Shown: in pieces, positions 3,359 through 64,000 of the stretch
How the letters are laid out: each line of letters opens with the position of its first letter
How positions within the stretch are numbered: the stretch's first letter is position 1
Source of the DNA: Escherichia phage vB_EcoM_Lh1B
Length of the DNA: 64,000 nt
Sequence record: OK428535.1
Strand: one strand, 5' to 3'
Made by a program: the position numbers and the translations under genes
Notes under the pieces: generated by a model
Told to the model about the DNA's origin: nothing
The model's input: the letters and a program-made list of their open reading frames with translations, nothing else
Databases searched by the model: none

Positions 3359-3397
3359 TCCCTCTTACCTTCGGGTAAGAGGGGATTTCCTTTTTTA
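3359..3397 (+). terminator. intrinsic terminator
   Basis: Stem CCTCTTACC / GGTAAGAGG with TTCG loop followed by T-tract, directly after stop of 2875..3354. Confidence 0.6.
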
Positions 3398-3413
3398 NNT
3401 TAATANTCAATAN

Positions 3414-3426
3414 TGTGATATATAAT
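3414..3426 (+). promoter_or_regulatory. candidate extended -10-like promoter element
   Basis: TGTGATATATAAT about 17 nt upstream of the 3443 start, downstream of a terminator; contains N calls nearby. Confidence 0.3.
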
Positions 3427-3442
3427 CTCNTGGNGAGTTGAA

Positions 3443-4162
3443 ATGACATATCCTAAAATTCTGCCTGTTTTAACGCCCACCGTTGTTGTTGGGACGGACT
3501 TAGAGACCCTGGCTTTACGTCCAGATGCCTACATCTTAACGTTGGCAAACGTGGCATTCGATGTTCCGACAATGAAAATGATCGGTTCATGTTACCACAA
3601 AATCGACCCCAATGATGCAAAAGCAAAAGAAATCTTCTACATCGATCCACAAACGGTCGGTTATTGGGAAGGTAAAGGCGACCCCGAATACGCACCGAGC
3701 GAGAAAGCACGTATTGAAGCGTTTTCTGGGACCACTCCACTGCCAGAAGCACTGTGGGCGGCCAAAAAATGGTTGGATGATCTGGGCAACGTGAAAATGG
3801 TTATCACCATGCGCGGTCCCGATTTCGATGCTCCAATTCTGATGAACGCATTCGCGCAGTGCGATATCCCGCCGGGCAAGTACCGCAAGTTTTCTATATT
3901 GGACTCTGACCGGACTGCAGAACGTATTGCATATGCGTTTGGCCTGGAACCGAACTGGCACGCAGAAGCGCACCATTGGACCCGTGGCAAAGAAGCGTAC
4001 GAGCATAACGCTAGCTTCGATGCTGCGAAGGAAGCGTATTCTACGGCACGCATCTATCATTTGGCCCTGGTCGCGCGTACGTACGGCTTCGAACGCATGT
4101 TAGAAGCCCACCGCGAAATGTGCACAGGTGAATACATTCCACCGCAGTTGCGAGGAGAATAA
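3443..4162 (+). CDS. DnaQ-like DEDDh 3'-5' exonuclease
   Basis: 239 aa; N-terminal VVVGTDLETLA (Exo I D-x-E) and C-terminal HNASFDA (Exo III H-x4-D) in the expected order. Confidence 0.6.
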   Translation: MTYPKILPVLTPTVVVGTDLETLALRPDAYILTLANVAFDVPTMKMIGSCYHKIDPNDAKAKEIFYIDPQTVGYWEGKGDPEYAPSEKARIEAFSGTTPLPEALWAAKKWLDDLGNVKMVITMRGPDFDAPILMNAFAQCDIPPGKYRKFSILDSDRTAERIAYAFGLEPNWHAEAHHWTRGKEAYEHNASFDAAKEAYSTARIYHLALVARTYGFERMLEAHREMCTGEYIPPQLRGE

Positions 4163-5676
4163 TGAAAGACGTCGACGTAGCGGTTATTTATACCGATGGT
4201 AGTCATACTGAGTCCCCGAAAGGTTCGGGGGCTGGTATTCATGGTTATTTATTCAACAACGGAGATTTGGAAGACAGTCAGGCTTATAGCCATCCGGGTG
4301 TTTCANAANGGATTACCACTGTTGGATANAAAAAAGNGCCGCAGGNTGNGAAGTGTCCGGNGTTGCCGGACACCGTTNAATTTNTNGACGCCGTTNTTCC
4401 CGTTCCNAAANAGTTNTNCNCAGATGTGGGNGNGTTAATCNCCTTCATCACGTTNTTTGAGAACGCGCCCTTCCGCGCGAAGAACTATATCATCTACGTG
4501 GATGCCAGTTACGTTGTAAACACTTTTAACGAGTGGATAGACGGCTGGCATAAACGTGGTTGGGTTCGTGCTGACGGTACTCCGCTGGCGAACAAAGAAC
4601 TTATTGTTCGTATCTGGGAAATCAAACAGCAGATGAAAAAAGAAGGACGGGGTGTTAAGGTTATCAAAATCAAAGGACACTCCGGCCACTACGGTAACGA
4701 CCGGGCGGACGAATTGGCTAGAAAAGGTTCAGCCATCACAGCGACCAACGACGGCGTTCCATATCAGCCGTACTGGTCGAAGGATGAGTTGCCTGCATCC
4801 GCGGAACCCGAGCCCATCGCCGCTGGGATGAACCTTGCGGCATATCCGCCTATTTGTACGGTTAAATATTGCTATCCGTTGGTGAACGAGGACCATCCTA
4901 CTGTAAAAGTGAAAGATGAAACTTTCTATTACATGTTTGGTGGCAACCATGCAAAGAACAAGGACGACTTGGTGTTTATTGGGAAAATGATTCCTGATGC
5001 ACACTTTTCCGTAATGTTCACTAAACAACCGTGGGATAACATCTACACGATTGTAAATACCCACGCCGCCCTGGCATGGAAAGATACACCGAAGATGCGG
5101 CAGTATGATCCAATCGGTGTTGTTAACAATGAGTTCGTTAAACGTAAGAAGTTCGTTGATGTGGCAGGTGATGGATTACCGGCAGACAAGATGCATTTCA
5201 GTGGAGAAGATTCCAATGTCTGGTTCTTTGAAGACCTGGCCATCTCCAGAATGCTTCGCCCGCCCTTATTGTCGTACCGTGCGCTGGATATTCGTGATGA
5301 ACTCGCTACAACGTTGCGAGATGTTCTGCATCAGGAAAAGGGTTACGTCTTAAACGACATTACCGACTTGCTATTCGACGACAAAGGTAAACCTGTCAAG
5401 GAATACTACCGTAGCGTCGATAAGTCAATAACGTTAAAGATTGACTTTCCGATGGGTAAACGACCTGTCTCGGTTATTTTGACTCGCGGTATCGATATTC
5501 CATCACGTACGGAAATCAACCGTATTAAAGAACCCGAAGGCCGTTATTACATCGCGGTGTGTCGTCCTGAAAAATACTACATCCGTTACTTCTTAATCTA
5601 TATCGGTAAAGAGTATCATGGGTTGTGGTGTGCGTATTACGCAAACCGTCGCATACTGCGAGAAGAAGAGGTGTAA
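4162..5676 (+). CDS. RNase HI-domain protein with large C-terminal extension
   Basis: 504 aa; N-terminal VAVIYTDGSH...GSGAGIHGYLF and KIKGHSGHYGNDRADELARKG match RNase HI catalytic blocks; about 350 aa of unknown function follow; N calls inside the RNase H domain. Confidence 0.65.
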   Translation: MKDVDVAVIYTDGSHTESPKGSGAGIHGYLFNNGDLEDSQAYSHPGVSXXITTVGXKKXPQXXKCPXLPDTVXFXDAVXPVXKXXXXDVXXLIXFITXFENAPFRAKNYIIYVDASYVVNTFNEWIDGWHKRGWVRADGTPLANKELIVRIWEIKQQMKKEGRGVKVIKIKGHSGHYGNDRADELARKGSAITATNDGVPYQPYWSKDELPASAEPEPIAAGMNLAAYPPICTVKYCYPLVNEDHPTVKVKDETFYYMFGGNHAKNKDDLVFIGKMIPDAHFSVMFTKQPWDNIYTIVNTHAALAWKDTPKMRQYDPIGVVNNEFVKRKKFVDVAGDGLPADKMHFSGEDSNVWFFEDLAISRMLRPPLLSYRALDIRDELATTLRDVLHQEKGYVLNDITDLLFDDKGKPVKEYYRSVDKSITLKIDFPMGKRPVSVILTRGIDIPSRTEINRIKEPEGRYYIAVCRPEKYYIRYFLIYIGKEYHGLWCAYYANRRILREEEV

Positions 5677-5677
5677 C

Positions 5678-6418
5678 ATGTTGCGAGTCGTGAGTGAATC
5701 GCTCACGCTCCACACACAAAGTCTGATTAACTGTGTGGAGCAATACGGATGGATGTCGTGGATGGCAACGAACCGTGAGTTTGGTGCTGCGCCCATGGAA
5801 GATTACGACGTGTTGTACAAGTGGGGATTTGAAGCGGCTTGTGATGTTGTGGCAGAGCTGGTTACCGAAACAATTGCGCGTTACAACGCAAGATGTGATG
5901 AACCGATGCCTAAACAAGTCCCGCCGCAAATACCTCCGCTACCGACAATCGATCGTGAGCATTGTCGAATCTGGACAATGGAAGAGTTGTACGACGAACA
6001 CGTTAGAATGCTGAAACCGAACGAGCTAATAACCGGTGCGTTGAACTGGTTCTTACATCGTTTCTGGACAGAGTTGGTCGATGTGGCGGGTGACGAAGAT
6101 AATTGTTCTCAGGTTATTTGGTACGATCGAGCGATGTTTCATCGCAGTCTTAAAGATCGTAGTCTCTGCAACCTGTATATTGTTGACCCGTGTGAAGACA
6201 TTGTAAAGGTTGCAGAAGGTAACTCTTATTCCGACTTGGTGATGCCCGTGGTAGAAAAACCGATGGGTATTTTCCTGCAGGGNGACGNTTGGGTTTTAAC
6301 GGATGATATCTCGGGCTACCTGCTGGACCCGGATGACATTCACTCGGACGAACCTGATACCATCGAGTATTTTCACTTTACAGAACAGGCAGCACGCTTC
6401 TTGCATCTCTTAAAGTAA
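5678..6418 (+). CDS. hypothetical protein
   Basis: In-frame ATG at 5678 two bases after the upstream stop with GAAGAGG SD-like sequence; preferred over the ORF-track start at 5618, which overlaps the upstream gene. Confidence 0.55.
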   Translation: MLRVVSESLTLHTQSLINCVEQYGWMSWMATNREFGAAPMEDYDVLYKWGFEAACDVVAELVTETIARYNARCDEPMPKQVPPQIPPLPTIDREHCRIWTMEELYDEHVRMLKPNELITGALNWFLHRFWTELVDVAGDEDNCSQVIWYDRAMFHRSLKDRSLCNLYIVDPCEDIVKVAEGNSYSDLVMPVVEKPMGIFLQXDXWVLTDDISGYLLDPDDIHSDEPDTIEYFHFTEQAARFLHLLK

Positions 6419-6421
6419 TCT

Positions 6422-6439
6422 GAGATAGATATTATCTAC
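6422..6439 (+). promoter_or_regulatory. candidate phage promoter motif (AT-rich TATATTAC-like family)
   Basis: GAGATAGATATTATCTAC about 33 nt upstream of 6472 start; related motifs at 14951..14978 and 46607..46634. Confidence 0.35.
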
Positions 6440-8559: not shown

Positions 8560-9098
8560 AAATATTCATTGATTTACTCGATGACGAATTTCGTGAAATA
8601 TTTCCAGCGGCGTTGTTCGAGTTTAAGCGTAAGTGTGAAGACTATCTGATACCGAAGAATATCGATCGTCAACACCTCGCTGGACTTATCTCTGCGGCGT
8701 ACGTCAATATCGCGGTAAATGAAGTTCATCAACTCGCGCAACGTATTGCGTGTTTCGAATACAACGACGAAGACATTGAAGACGGCTTCCTGCAGTCTAA
8801 GATGGGTCGCTTCTCACTCGAACTCAAGACCGATGAGGTTATTGATAAGGTCGGTAAAGCCTTTGATGAAATGAAGGACATCGAAATGATGATTAAGATG
8901 TCTGGACCGGAAGCAGGCCCATTGAAAGAAGCGTGGGAACATCTCAACCGCGACGAGTATAAAGAGATGTACATGGGTGAGTTCACCACCATGCTACGTC
9001 ACCTCGAAGCACAGGTCTGGGAGCATATCGTTTCACGTCTGAAAGAAATACTGATTGTGATTGAGCCAATGCAGCCACTCGCTATTAGTAAATTCTAG
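8556..9098 (+). CDS. hypothetical protein
   Basis: 180-aa ORF; start overlaps upstream stop (ATGA), suggesting translational coupling. Confidence 0.55.
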   Translation: MKIFIDLLDDEFREIFPAALFEFKRKCEDYLIPKNIDRQHLAGLISAAYVNIAVNEVHQLAQRIACFEYNDEDIEDGFLQSKMGRFSLELKTDEVIDKVGKAFDEMKDIEMMIKMSGPEAGPLKEAWEHLNRDEYKEMYMGEFTTMLRHLEAQVWEHIVSRLKEILIVIEPMQPLAISKF

Positions 9099-13790: not shown

Positions 13791-14515
13791 GATTAGGACG
13801 CCGTTTCTTAGTCGATATCGACACAATCTTCGATACACGAATTGGTTGGGCGAAAGTGTTGCAGCCTGATGTATTAGAGAAGCTTGATTTAGAAGTGTAT
13901 CGGATGCGGTTCACGGATGCGTGGGCCGAAGTGGTAGGAATTCAGGACTGGAATAAAAAGTTCGCGGAGCGTGATAAACGCGCGTTGCAGAACGCGCAGC
14001 CAACAGAAATGTTGCTTACGCTAAAGAACGAAGTACAGGCAATGTTAATGACGATACAGATGCACGCTCCTATCGAGCGACCAGTCTTAACGTTTAACCT
14101 GTGGCCGTACGCCGATCTCGATGATGAAGAACGTCATGCGTTTTTGGAAGAACTGCGTTACTACTATAACGAAGTGCAAGTAGACGTCGTTGTTATTCCT
14201 CACAGCGATCTTACACCAGGACGACTTGCTTCGGCGTGGGACGGTTGGATAATGTACGACTGGTACCCGTGGATAGAACAACACGCGGGCCATTTCCAGA
14301 AACCGATTCCGGACTTCACTATTACCCGACCGAGTATGCTGACCAGCGAATTAACGGAAGAAGCCATCGCGCAAATAAAAAGAGATAAGGTGAACCCCTT
14401 TAAGGAGTCCACCCGTTTTCTTGCTCAGTACGTCGGTACTGACGTAAAGGACACTGCGCTGTTTAGTCTTCGTCGTCATCAGCAGGACGACGACTCGCAA
14501 ACGCAGACGCCATGA
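13787..14515 (+). CDS. hypothetical protein
   Basis: 242-aa ORF; ATGA overlap with upstream gene. Confidence 0.55.
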   Translation: MRLGRRFLVDIDTIFDTRIGWAKVLQPDVLEKLDLEVYRMRFTDAWAEVVGIQDWNKKFAERDKRALQNAQPTEMLLTLKNEVQAMLMTIQMHAPIERPVLTFNLWPYADLDDEERHAFLEELRYYYNEVQVDVVVIPHSDLTPGRLASAWDGWIMYDWYPWIEQHAGHFQKPIPDFTITRPSMLTSELTEEAIAQIKRDKVNPFKESTRFLAQYVGTDVKDTALFSLRRHQQDDDSQTQTP

Positions 14516-14933
14516 TCTGGTCAACGTCAATCTTTTCGCCTACTGGTGCCAACTCACCTTCTTTCGGAGGCCGTACTGCGGCAATCTGTGGGACGGTGGG
14601 TTGGTATCCGTTATTTAAATCTTCTTCATCGTCGTGACGTTTGATACCAACGCCAGCACGGGTCATTAAGAAGCCGTTTAAACTGTTGGCCAAATNTTGA
14701 GTCGCCTCAGCGCCTTTCNCAGCAGCTTTAATTTTCCGCTTCGTCATGACCTGTTTGTCGATGCCGTTGATTAGGCGTTCGATTCGGTCGACGGCTTTTA
14801 AGTCTTTGTGTACTTCACCGTCGTTCACCATATCCGTGACGAGCTTAACGCGTAGCTGTTGTGTTTGGCGGAGAAGCGAATCTTCGTTGTCCACATCTCC
14901 GTCGAACGCTTGGTATTTCACTTCTTCGCTCAT
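14463..14933 (-). CDS. hypothetical acidic protein
   Basis: 156-aa ORF on the minus strand whose 3' end overlaps the 3' end of 13787..14515 by about 50 bp. Confidence 0.45.
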   Translation of the reverse strand: MSEEVKYQAFDGDVDNEDSLLRQTQQLRVKLVTDMVNDGEVHKDLKAVDRIERLINGIDKQVMTKRKIKAAXKGAEATQXLANSLNGFLMTRAGVGIKRHDDEEDLNNGYQPTVPQIAAVRPPKEGELAPVGEKIDVDQIMASAFASRRPADDDED

Positions 14934-14950
14934 GGGATAACCTCATCTCA

Positions 14951-14978
14951 AAAAGAACTCAGACAGATATTATCTATC
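14951..14978 (+). promoter_or_regulatory. candidate phage promoter motif (AT-rich family)
   Basis: AAAAGAACTCAGACAGATATTATCTATC, near-identical in its first half to 46607..46634. Confidence 0.35.
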
Positions 14979-15009
14979 CGAGACAACATCTCATAATAGG
15001 ATAACACCT

Positions 15010-61573: not shown

Positions 61574-62707
61574 ATGATGAACTATGAACGTAAGCACGCG
61601 TGGCAAGAAAAGCTACGCACGGGGCAGATACATTCTGCCCAACAAGTGAAGATGTGGGTGCTGCCGCACGGCGTCATCTGCGAAATGGTCCAGGTCGGGG
61701 GATTACCTATTCTTCGAAATGGCAAATACGATTCGATGAACACGGTACTCGCGCGCTTGCTGGCCGATGCAGGCATAATGGGTACCGTGATTTTATATTC
61801 AACCGCAACGATTCCTCAGAACCTTTCTCGCTGGTTAACACATTGGCTTTCCAATGACCCTAGCGAGGACGATCCGTGGCTACGTTCGATGACAGTGACA
61901 ACAATGGGTCAACGGCCGACGAAACCCCTCCCATTCCAGGTCAATGTAATTGAACCAGCTATTCTGGAAGCGGGTGAAGTGTTTGAAGCAATCAAACATC
62001 GATCTCGCGATGTTAGCATCAGTCAGTTTCTTATCGAAGCGAATGATGTGACTTACCGGCTGGAGCCTGTACGACGTATGGACGCTCGTATCGTCGACTG
62101 CACAGAGTTCGGTTATGTCTTGCGTACACAGGGCAACCATACCTTCCTGGCATCGATGCTCTCTCGCCGCGTGCAGGGACAGTTAGCACACTACAAAGTG
62201 TCCCCTGCTGACCTCGTCGGTACCGACGTTAAGGTCGAATACACAATGTTTACCGAAGGGAATCGACTGTGTAATTTTAAGTCTCCGGTAGTCTATCGGA
62301 GTAAGGCACTTGATGCCTTAGGCGACCAGAATGTCCCGACATACGATGGCCCCTATCCGTTTAAATCGCAAGCATCTGCAAACCGTGCGCTCCTTACGGT
62401 AACTCGGTGTAAACGCGCAGCGATCACGCGGACCGACGGGGAAATTTATGGTAAGGACACTGAGTCTGACGCAAAACTCTTTTCGTTCCGGCGTGGTGTG
62501 AAACCTGGATTGTATGCCGCGACGTTTGAAAAGGGGGATGACGTCGAGTTCTGGCAGTTCGACAGCGATTTTGCAGTAGATGCGATTGACCCAGATGCGT
62601 TAGTGAGTGTCATCACAGACCAAATCTTTTACGCGACGGGTATGAGCCTGCTGGAAATCTTTTTAATGTACGATGCCAGATTACCTTCACAGTCAGTCAA
62701 AACGTAA
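61574..62707 (+). CDS. hypothetical protein
   Basis: 377-aa ORF with GAAGGAG RBS. Confidence 0.55.
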   Translation: MMNYERKHAWQEKLRTGQIHSAQQVKMWVLPHGVICEMVQVGGLPILRNGKYDSMNTVLARLLADAGIMGTVILYSTATIPQNLSRWLTHWLSNDPSEDDPWLRSMTVTTMGQRPTKPLPFQVNVIEPAILEAGEVFEAIKHRSRDVSISQFLIEANDVTYRLEPVRRMDARIVDCTEFGYVLRTQGNHTFLASMLSRRVQGQLAHYKVSPADLVGTDVKVEYTMFTEGNRLCNFKSPVVYRSKALDALGDQNVPTYDGPYPFKSQASANRALLTVTRCKRAAITRTDGEIYGKDTESDAKLFSFRRGVKPGLYAATFEKGDDVEFWQFDSDFAVDAIDPDALVSVITDQIFYATGMSLLEIFLMYDARLPSQSVKT

Positions 62708-63227: not shown

Positions 63228-63236
63228 GTCACTAGG

Positions 63237-63290
63237 CGTACTCTCTTCGGGGAGTACNCCAATNTTNTTTTTTTTGTTTTTTTAACCAAC
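63237..63290 (+). terminator. intrinsic terminator
   Basis: Stem GTACTCTC / GGGAGTAC with TTCG loop followed by a long T-tract (contains N calls). Confidence 0.55.
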
Positions 63291-63872
63291 CGGTTAAAGG
63301 GGTCTGGGAAGCATCAGAAAACGATTAGGTGGTATCGACGTAGGGTAGCTCGTTTTTGGCAGTTTATCGTTTTCTAGGGTCAGTTACGTGCGTTTTAGAG
63401 GGGGTTATGTATCGAGACAGAGAATTTATTTTTGTCGGGGCGAGGAAATTCAGGGAATGGGGATTCAGGATTGTATGTTTTTTAACCAGTTATTAAAAAC
63501 GCTCTAGAAAGCGCTAGAACGAGATTTGTACCAGACCCAGTACACTTGGGTTCCCCCTACCGGAAAATCGCGCCAGCGGGCCGCTGAGAGCGCGAGAGTG
63601 CCATTCCCGTTTCGGTTCCGAGGTGACGGTCGCGGCCGGCGACGACGATCACACGTTGGGTAGCACTTCGTGCCATGTCTGGGTGAAAACTGGATCGTTC
63701 TGTAACCGACACACACTGTCGGTTACTTACGAGTTCTTTGGGTTGTTTAACTCGCTCTAAAATCCCCCTTAGGGGATAATTTAATCTAATTCTCAAAATT
63801 TCTTTTTAAAACAATCACTTAGATTGTTTTTTAGATTGATCCTGTGGATCGGGTCGAAGACCCTTTCCTTAT

Positions 63873-64000
63873 ACGCGTGCGCGTGCGCACACCCGTATCC
63901 TCCAGGATCTTTTAAAATATATAATAATATTAAATATAATAATACCTTTAGGTATTATATTTAATTATTATAATTATTTATATAAATAAATATATTAATA
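63873..64000. other. alternating purine-pyrimidine tract followed by an extremely AT-rich region
   Basis: ACGCGTGCGCGTGCGCACAC (63873-63892) then about 85 bp almost entirely A/T with short inverted repeats, running to the window edge; no coding potential. Confidence 0.4.

Follow-up and report, generated by a model that had tools for sequence, protein, structure and literature searches.

Location of the locus and its neighbouring genes

The window, i.e. the whole stretch of 64,000 nucleotides analysed here (Escherichia phage vB_EcoM_Lh1B, record OK428535.1), forms the terminal part of a record from an SPN3US-like jumbo phage (genus Seoulvirus); with 247 N's in the window, this record is of draft quality. 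In a database sequence search with the last 800 bases of the window, 34 phage records matched at 90-99% identity, all of them SPN3US-like jumbo phages of this genus with Salmonella and E. coli as hosts. The edge of the window falls in the middle of a gene-free locus, of which the window holds only the first ~780 bp. In the complete relative SPLA1a (240,348 bp), which was used for the genome-wide scans, this gap spans 1.75 kb and is the largest non-coding, unannotated gap of the genome. The locus is internal in SPLA1a, SPFM4 and other relatives, where the last gene of the window is followed by the 1.75 kb of unannotated DNA and then by a small variable gene, a gene for an HslV-like peptidase and a tRNA-Trp. 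The large terminase gene is found ~3.5 kb upstream of the locus. The nearest downstream gene is located ~1 kb past the window edge and differs between phages, so that the refuting condition of the initial annotation, a 5' UTR belonging to such a gene, is not applicable here.

The left edge of the gap is marked by an intrinsic terminator, with a hairpin at 63235-63260 (stem of 11 bp, 7 GC pairs; L001 4036-4061) and a T-run directly after it. The position of this terminator is kept in SPAsTU and SNUABM29, with a different stem. Protein-family searches with the neighbouring genes gave nothing informative; the 377-aa product of one neighbour is labelled 'putative DNA ligase' in two records, without Pfam support. 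The initial annotation saw no convincing open reading frame in the region, and this was borne out: the longest frames encode 79, 70 and 46 aa, none with a Pfam or PHROG match, and a 13-nt indel inside the frames of the gap separates three divergent Seoulvirus lineages. No genes were called in the gap in ten independent assemblies, a tRNA/tmRNA scan of the window found none, nearly all full-length records leave the gap unannotated, and an annotation of its core is absent from every record.

Sequence elements of the gap

Every sequence element listed in the initial annotation is present, with small corrections of coordinates and lengths only. The features within the window are as follows (strand given where one could be assigned):

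63235..63285, plus strand: intrinsic terminator of the last gene in the window (62718/62673-63227), hairpin GGCGTACTCTC-TTCG-GGGAGTACNCC then T-run
63286..63539: left spacer, part 1, not coding, with conserved blocks split by variable stretches
63495..63521, minus strand: terminator-like hairpin with U5, CGTTCTAGCG-CTTT-CTAGAGCG-TTTTT
63540..63720: GC-rich island (GC content 61%), in which the two GATC sites at 63647 and 63693 are conserved
63704..63724: perfect hairpin or palindrome AACCGACA-CACAC-TGTCGGTT, within a near-invariant block of 47 nt
63762..63777: hairpin ATCCCC-CTTA-GGGGAT
63795..63828: T-rich box AAAATTTCTTTTTAAAACA-n3-ACTTA, single copy in the genome, overlapping the hairpin AACAATC-ACTTA-GATTGTT
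63838..63863: left GATC pair in the palindrome GATCC-TGT-GGATC, then hairpin GGGTC-GAA-GACCC
63870..63892: CG-rich alternating purine-pyrimidine tract TATACGCGTGCGCGTGCGCACAC, 23 bp, predicted to be Z-DNA-prone
63898..63913: near-invariant box TCCTnCAGGATCTTTT, present once in the genome, which borders the A/T block on the left and includes the third left GATC (63906)
63910..64000: A/T block, cut by the window edge, candidate DNA-unwinding element with a full length of ~100-115 bp

The first part of the left spacer was examined in an alignment of three Seoulvirus lineages and in a conservation profile, and its conserved blocks comprise two copies of the box TTTTTAACCA as well as GTAGGGTAGC, GTTACGTG and GGAATTTATTTTT. 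The hairpin at 63521-63495 is kept in SPAsTU and SNUABM29, where the stems differ and include two compensatory pairs (consensus-fold columns 282-301). It contains a G.U pair on the minus strand, which corresponds to an A.C mismatch on the plus strand. These properties hint at a leftward transcript that would span the GC-rich island, with the hairpin as its candidate terminator. Within this island, the conserved blocks include GACGATC..ACGTTGGGTAGCAC-TTC-GTGC and a block starting with AAACTGGATCGTTCTGTAACCGACA. The perfect stem-loop AACCGACACACACTGTCGGTT starts at 63704 rather than at 63703, and shows a compensatory change from A-T to T-A in SNUABM29 (ATCCGACA...TGTCGGAT). The stem-loop ATCCCCCTTAGGGGAT was located at 63762; every genus has a hairpin at this place, with differing sequences (CCGGCC.., GCCAGC.., CCCGGC..).

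The core of the locus runs from ~63795 to 64000 in the window and then continues for ~75 bp past its edge. The ACTT of the T-rich box is invariant among the 13 phages that were aligned, and the box is a possible promoter or protein site, judging from its conservation. The short palindrome GATCCTGTGGATC is present at 63838. The alternating purine-pyrimidine tract is present as well, with a length of 23 bp instead of the 20 bp given initially, and is the longest such tract both in the window and in the 240-kb genome. As an alternating run well above ~12 bp that is rich in CG/CA steps, it has the composition expected of DNA that may adopt the Z-form.

The A/T-rich block described as ~85 bp of nearly pure A/T up to the window edge was confirmed (63915-64000 has 5% GC), except that it does not stop at the edge but extends for ~20 bp more in relatives. 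There, a right arm matching the left one comes after the block, which has a GC-rich alternating, Z-prone and palindromic tract and a group of GATC sites on either side. The block harbours the palindrome ATAATACC-TTTA-GGTATTAT, with its core at 63941-63956. The block is the sole 40-mer with at least 90% A+T in the 64-kb window as well as in the complete 240-kb relative, and the sole 80-mer with at least 80% A+T in the latter. The invariant motifs of the core and its borders are all single-copy in the genome.

GATC clusters and the phage Dam methylase

The A/T block of SPLA1a is surrounded by seven GATC sites, three on the left and four on the right (6-8 in relatives), in the hexamers TGATCC, GGATCG and GGATCT on one side and AGATCT, TGATCC, AGATCG and TGATCG on the other. 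This is the densest GATC cluster of the genome, with 7 sites per 250 bp against 4 in the runner-up and a mean of 0.5 (2.0 per kb). GATC is 2.5-fold depleted genome-wide, with 483 sites observed versus ~1205 expected under a Markov model. Within ~230 bp, three genome-wide extremes thus fall together: in A/T content, in the length of an alternating tract and in GATC density. The elements observed here are real and far from chance.

The phage encodes a D12-class adenine methyltransferase of 264 aa (PF02086, 1.7e-52). Its alignments with the GATC-specific enzymes E. coli Dam (2g1p, 2e-53) and M.DpnII extend over the full length, and it scores 240 bits against a cut-off of 115 for the NCBIfam Dam subfamily (TIGR00571). 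A syntenic orthologue is found in every genus having a GATC-flanked core. Going by this homology, the phage Dam would be specific for GATC and would probably methylate the GATC sites of the core.

Conservation across genera

In a distant blastn search, SPAsTU and pEa_SNUABM_29 showed ~70% identity over the entire gap, and conserved islands were recovered in many Erwinia jumbo phages. We aligned 13 phages, comprising Seoulvirus, Erskinevirus phiEaH2, Wellingtonvirus Kwan, Huxley, Caitlin, ChrisDB and five environmental contigs. The environmental contigs were found with the motifs of the core; matches to the left motif in IMG/VR were mostly unrelated chance hits, and were kept only if the right motif was also present or if the contig belonged to a jumbo phage.

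The same order of parts was found in the 13 aligned phages, including the lineages of Huxley/Machina and Caitlin/ChrisDB. It starts with a genus-specific hairpin, the T-rich box and a variable hairpin, followed by one or two GATCs, the CG-rich alternating tract, the near-invariant border box and the A/T block. Past the window edge, the order continues with (AGATCTTAAA)ACGCG...GCGCGTGATCCTTATTA(A/C)GAGATCnnGATC, a GC hairpin, and a box with an invariant TTAC and T(A/G)TG ~15-20 nt further. Paired GATCs at a distance of 9-11 bp are kept in Seoulvirus, Erskinevirus and Wellingtonvirus. The palindromes keep their symmetry across lineages while their sequences change. The alternating tract drifts in relatives and is in most of them still a GC-rich palindrome (CGCGTG-CA-CACGCG, CGCGTAC-GTACGCG, GACGCG-ATCA-CGCGTC).

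Members of the SPN3US species have a nearly invariant 100-bp A/T block, with length differences at its right end only; such near-invariance is unexpected for spacer DNA. In seven of nine lineages, the G and C bases of the block are almost confined to one or two palindromes, whose centres lie ~37 and ~75 bp from the left GATC. These palindromes are genus-specific, as illustrated by ATAATACC-TTTA-GGTATTAT, TATATCCC-GTA-GGGATATA and TAATATC-TTTA-GATATTA. Wellingtonvirus has a shorter A/T block that lacks internal palindromes. The more distant Derbicusvirus (CR5, Phobos, EarlPhillipIV) has a shorter gap in the same syntenic place, with an AT-rich stretch, short direct repeats (AATGAATG, ATGGATAA) and a central palindrome, only two GATCs and no CG tract. 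This suggests that Derbicusvirus may carry an older type of the locus; origins typically diverge in this way.

The core is single-copy, has symmetric arms and palindromes that keep their symmetry, and is conserved base for base in its A/T block within a species. For these reasons we regard it as a cis-acting DNA site rather than a gene. Read from these alignments, the locus is a single-copy, gene-free, cis-acting control region kept across the SPN3US-like group of nucleus-forming jumbo phages that infect Salmonella and Erwinia.

RNA structure and promoter signals on the flanks

The initial annotation also proposed a small structured RNA at 63500-63800, and a scan against Rfam as the way to check it. 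Neither the end of the window nor the whole gap of a relative matched any of the 4227 families at E<=10; the best hits reached 10-19 bits against thresholds of 35-204 (E 0.9-10). Folding z-scores were -1.6 on the plus strand and -2.9 on the minus strand for 63520-63790, and -1.4 and -2.3, respectively, for 63280-63530. In a consensus fold of the minus strand at 63478-63798, made from five sequences that represent only three divergent lineages, the local hairpins were kept with a few compensatory pairs, whereas a global fold was not conserved. Across these lineages a globally folded RNA of the left flank appears rather unlikely, with its long-range helices broken and an unfavourable covariation term of +5.2. 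The left flank is better described as a string of conserved hairpins and blocks, possibly transcribed leftward.

The right flank, ~800 nt beyond the window edge (L001 ~5577-5740), contains an island of ~150 nt that is common to all genera except Derbicusvirus. Its consensus structure has 36 pairs, 16 of which show compensatory double changes, and includes a hairpin with a conserved GNRA loop as well as an 8-pair helix that is almost wholly changed between genera. In this alignment, 95.7% of the cells are paired, compared with 37-47% when the partners are slid, and none of 500 shuffles reached the score. The RNA was assigned to the plus strand because G.U pairs are frequent. On this comparative evidence, the island is a well-supported new structured RNA domain.

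The TTAC...T(A/G)TG box just to the right of the core resembles a box directly upstream of the next gene, and recalls features of the middle and late promoters of phiKZ (PMC7598289). A strict pattern of this kind ('T-run+AC ... TRTRG') occurs at only five distinct sites genome-wide and misses the copy beside the core, so the promoter class is tentative. The recurrent early-promoter-like motif AGATAGATATTATCT of the phage is absent from the gap. Matches to sigma-70 promoters were found only within the A/T block, as its composition predicts, and were rejected as candidates; their relevance is doubtful for a phage with its own RNA polymerases.

The window edge and the ends of database records

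The last base of the window is also the exact end of the records SEGD1, JN03 and EC001. The SPN3US record is split ~200 bp to the left of the window edge, and the records of SPFM2, SPFM16 and SPFM17 are split inside the A/T block. Ten independent assemblies of ~240 kb, among them a metagenome and assemblies made automatically from raw runs, read straight through the locus, which implies that the window edge is a linearisation point of the database and not a physical end. The group has been treated as T4-like headful packagers with permuted genomes and without defined ends; base pair 1 is conventional, and in Erwinia phages was set by alignment to SPN3US (PMC5690319, PMC5694885).

The initial annotation considered a packaging or genome-end region. 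A physical end is not supported by these data, and a pac-type initiation site is possible since the layout of the core resembles the pac site of phage P1. That the block is a physical terminus (cos, or the boundary of a direct terminal repeat) or a mere artefact of assembly or record is very improbable: the window does end inside the block, several records are split there and the draft contains its N's, but more than 20 complete records and the ten independent contigs carry the block at internal, arbitrary positions in continuous sequence, its two arms match each other, and it is conserved across genera with compensatory changes, so it is no artefact.

Discussion

The core of the gap is most likely a start of DNA replication or, less likely, of DNA packaging. 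Among the functions initially proposed, a replication origin is the best-supported reading, through the anatomy and conservation of the locus; the GC skew gave no support. We computed GC skew and AT skew over the complete genome, and both were monotonic, without an origin signal. GC skew is uninformative here because it follows gene orientation. The anatomy is that of an origin in that it combines a unique, easily melted block with GC 'clamps', methylation sites and flanking transcription units. Tentatively, and with somewhat less than an even chance of being right, we read the locus as a phage replication origin, in which a DNA-unwinding element flanked by Dam sites would be activated by flanking transcription.

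From these parts, we infer unwinding, initiation, transcriptional activation and the protein partners as follows. The A/T block would serve as the DNA-unwinding element, and transcription on its flanks would help to open it. On the right, the promoter-like TTAC...T(A/G)TG box would fire rightward into the structured non-coding RNA, while on the left a leftward unit would probably end at the hairpin at 63521-63495. Negative supercoiling between the two divergent units might then bring about the opening, or else an RNA-DNA hybrid like those at T4 and T7 origins. The palindromes and CG tracts may be sites for phage proteins, or sinks of supercoiling that form cruciforms or Z-DNA. The GATC clusters, methylated by the phage Dam, could mark the element as replicated or unreplicated.

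The gene set of the phage includes a DnaB-like helicase, split polymerases and homologues of UvsX, SbcCD and RuvC. By analogy, these genes fit a T4-like scheme, in which an origin would be needed only for the first rounds of replication. A unique origin is not guaranteed, because with UvsX, SbcCD and RuvC homologues these phages may replicate largely by recombination, like late T4. No initiator protein was found. We found no description of an origin for SPN3US-like phages or Chimalliviridae in the searchable literature, and publications on the origin, non-coding region, transcriptome or PhageTerm analysis of SPN3US and phiKZ had nothing specific to this locus.

Transcriptional control as an alternative

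The flanking signals also fit a different function. Two divergent genes for non-coding RNAs could have the core as their common upstream region, with a leftward RNA over the GC island and a rightward RNA of ~800 nt. The A/T block and palindromes of the core would then be promoter, upstream or regulator sites, and its GATCs would provide methylation-sensitive regulation, with no role in replication or packaging. The compensatory pairs and shuffling results for the rightward RNA domain strongly support part of this proposal, and the phiKZ-like box next to the core, the conserved T-rich box, the conserved minus-strand hairpin with its U-run and the better folding of the minus strand than of the plus strand over the GC island (z of -2.9 versus -1.6) point in the same direction. 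However, the left flank lacks a conserved global fold and the gap lacks the early-promoter-like motif; moreover, a unique A/T block, the longest Z-prone tract and the densest GATC cluster go far beyond what the other intergenic regions of this phage require. We therefore consider it rather unlikely that the locus serves transcriptional control only. A control region for the flanking RNAs and an origin are not mutually exclusive.

A P1-like packaging site as an alternative

The GATC clusters, the Dam methylase and the nearby terminase gene would fit a P1-like pac site about as well as they fit an origin. The pac site of P1 spans 161 bp and has seven GATC hexamers in two groups (4+3) on either side of an IHF site and the point of cleavage; adenine methylation regulates the cut, and P1 has its own Dam (PMC10028697, PMC12707154). 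It thus provides a precedent for the gating of a DNA transaction by methylation. By analogy, terminase would recognise the GATC arms and make its first cut in or near the A/T core, followed by headful packaging under the control of Dam. Like P1 pac, the core described here is single-copy, has seven GATCs in two clusters (3+4, around a central A/T region), occurs in a phage with its own Dam and lies not far from terminase genes, in this case ~3.5 kb downstream of the large subunit gene. In addition, the records of SPN3US, SEGD1, JN03, EC001, SPFM2, SPFM16 and SPFM17 start or end in or beside the block. Low coverage of a 100-bp block of pure A/T would, however, also produce such breaks, and the ten independent assemblies break at arbitrary places instead of at the locus.

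The differences from P1 are considerable. P1 pac lies inside pacA and works with PacA/PacB, whereas the core studied here is intergenic and measures ~225 bp, and its centre combines palindromes and Z-prone tracts with a 100-bp stretch of pure A/T. Its hexamers are heterogeneous: rather than a uniform TGATCA/G, only three of the seven are TGATC(C/G), and the set has no common consensus. There is no IHF site between the clusters, and no PacA/PacB or small terminase was identified. Furthermore, the large terminase is T4-like, in line with the description of the group as permuted headful packagers, and related jumbo phages were classified as 'headful without pac' in PhageTerm (PMC6690015). On balance, a pac site appears unlikely, and we retain the replication origin as the preferred reading.

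Comparison with known origins

The 13-mers of the unwinding element of E. coli oriC begin with GATC (consensus GATCTnTTnTTTT), and oriC is under the control of Dam and SeqA. The core has the two hallmarks of an oriC-type region, an A/T-rich unwinding element and a high GATC density, the latter ~10x the genome mean. The A/T-rich region has GATCT at its borders, and the left border GATCTTTTA agrees with the 13-mer consensus at its first nine positions. In contrast to oriC, the A/T block is much longer, carries palindromes, and has no DnaA boxes: no match to TTATNCACA was found in the gap, even with one mismatch, and the five matches in the 8.8-kb locus were all outside the gap and below chance expectation. 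We know of no DnaA-type initiator in these phages, and the phage nucleus probably keeps host proteins out. The IHF consensus WATCAANNNNTTR has no match in the core and a single match in the right spacer (L001 5130-5142).

A lambda-type origin shares with the core an A/T-rich region beside conserved blocks and a palindrome. It differs in its array of direct repeats: no array of at least three direct repeats was found by the A/T block of Seoulvirus, which has only two-copy short repeats and low-complexity A/T periodicities, and short direct repeats occur only in Derbicusvirus. With DnaA boxes, IHF sites and iterons all absent from the core, an oriC-type or lambda-type origin was rejected.

At T4 oriF and oriG and at the primary origin of T7, a promoter reads into an adjacent A/T-rich unwinding element, and the transcript primes or opens the origin. 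The present locus resembles these origins in having promoter-like boxes within ~100 bp of the A/T block, in a phage that has its own RNA polymerases and, as in T4, a UvsX, SbcCD, RuvC and DnaB-like helicase gene set. The T-rich box, a possible promoter of either orientation, lies ~90 bp to the left of the A/T block. The clearer and better-supported promoter-like box, to the right of the block, is directed away from it, unlike the promoters of T4 and T7. The origins of T4 and T7 are not known to be flanked by GATC clusters or CG palindromes.

With GOLLD, ROOL and other Rfam families, the gap shares a long, gene-free and conserved stretch near phage tRNA genes, and a right flank that holds a structured RNA with clear covariation. 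The part within the window differs from these families by its lack of a conserved global fold, and the gap by its lack of a match even at E<=10.

Implications

The nucleus-forming jumbo phages (Chimalliviridae) are an intensively studied group. In the searchable literature, we found no description of where their replication starts or how their packaging is initiated. The parts of the locus are of known kinds, i.e. a DNA-unwinding element, clusters of Dam sites and palindromes; new is their combination in a nucleus-forming phage that carries a Dam methylase and purges GATC from its genome. A specific version of this idea, in which the core would be a methylation-gated, single-copy start of replication or packaging that operates inside the phage nucleus with the phage's own Dam, has a modest probability in our view, well below an even chance. 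Such an element would unite the A/T unwinding block with cruciform- or Z-prone palindromes and with flanking non-coding RNAs, one of them bearing the new structured domain. The suggested task of the phage Dam would lie in a compartment to which host Dam and SeqA probably have no access.

The locus offers a concrete, single-copy and conserved candidate that can be deleted, moved or mapped, using Cas13a selection, marker-frequency sequencing and long-read methylation calling. It is also a region to avoid, or to exploit, in the engineering of these phages. For users of the databases, the 'genome ends' of reference records cut through a candidate functional element. If the proposed methylation-gated function holds true, the Chimalliviridae would have their first defined origin or pac element acting in cis, and the phage Dam would gain a role in a genome that otherwise purges GATC.

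A structured RNA domain to the right of the core

Beyond the core (an A/T block with flanking GATC clusters and CG-rich tracts) lies a structured RNA domain of about 150 nt, which is conserved across the genera that have the core. It occurs as one copy only and in every case lies on the plus strand, 3' of the core. Positions are those of sequence stretches from relatives, of which L001 carries the whole gap:

L001 5577-5740, plus strand: structured RNA domain, about 770-930 nt past the window end
L003 about 4700-4860, L005 about 3370-3540 and L008 about 8915-9070: further loci of the domain

The predicted fold has five helices, with compensatory changes in 16 of the 36 pairs, and includes a hairpin with a GNRA loop; ATCTTGGCGGCTCGGAAAGACGAGAGGGG is an invariant stretch. 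The domain has no match in Rfam. We consider it a candidate for a new phage RNA motif.

The right spacer, also outside the window, contains a stretch (L001 5146-5400) that is 70-88% invariant across three divergent Seoulvirus lineages and more conserved than the adjoining protein-coding gene. Within it, a terminator-like hairpin on the plus strand (L001 5227-5249) is followed by a T-run. This stretch probably belongs to the same long non-coding transcript as the structured RNA.

Gene turnover and neighbouring genes

Directly upstream of the RNA island, ORFs resembling HNH homing endonucleases have been inserted into the right spacer in two separate lineages:

L006 (Kwan) 3403-3912: HNH homing-endonuclease-like ORF
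L071 5241-5777: HNH homing-endonuclease-like ORF

The small gene past the island varies by phage (191, 129 or 104 aa) and is absent from SPN3US. The border of the locus at the RNA island is a hotspot of gene gain and loss.

Upstream of the locus lies the following gene:

Window 61574-62707, plus strand: 377-aa gene, phrog_8136

Its product had no Pfam match; two records (Proteus phage 7 and MET_P1_082_240) annotate the phrog_8136 gene as 'putative DNA ligase'. The gene is kept in Derbicusvirus, down to about 40% identity, and adjoins this locus in all cases.

A second unannotated gap of about 1 kb (13934-14988 in the complete relative SPLA1a) lies about 2.5-3.6 kb beyond the window end and adjoins tRNA genes (tRNA-Trp; tRNA-Tyr in SPAsTU and SNUABM29). 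Gene content is unusually low over the entire 11-15 kb stretch of the genome.

Methylation, promoters and record quality

SPLA1a encodes its own Dam-family methyltransferase, and GATC is depleted 2.5-fold in the same genome. An orthologue is syntenic in every genus with the GATC-flanked core.

SPLA1a 109435-110229 (L054 9435-10229), outside the window: Dam-family methyltransferase gene

An intergenic motif, AGATAGATATTATCT..GTGA, recurs in the window (six matches versus 0.6 expected) and in intergenic regions of L007; the gap around the core has no match. In SPN3US the motif probably serves as the consensus of early promoters, those of the virion RNA polymerase.

Window 6427-6437 and 14965-14975, plus strand: AGATAGATATTATCT..GTGA

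Scattered clusters throughout the window (e.g. 971, 1458-1592, 2722-2798 and 63259-63268) comprise 247 N's, and the record is therefore a draft consensus. Three N's fall inside the terminator and T-run immediately left of the region studied.

The locus in Derbicusvirus

The RNA domain is not present in the Derbicusvirus loci, where the position syntenic with the gap around the core holds an AT-rich stretch of about 120 bp:

L057 2240-2360, L059 2250-2370 and L060 2225-2340: AT-rich stretch

Direct repeats (AATGAATG, ATGGATAA) surround a central palindrome (TAATTGAT...ATCAATTA), with GGGGGGATCAAGGGGGGAT before the stretch and an early-promoter-like box after it. The Derbicusvirus stretch appears to be another form of this type of locus.
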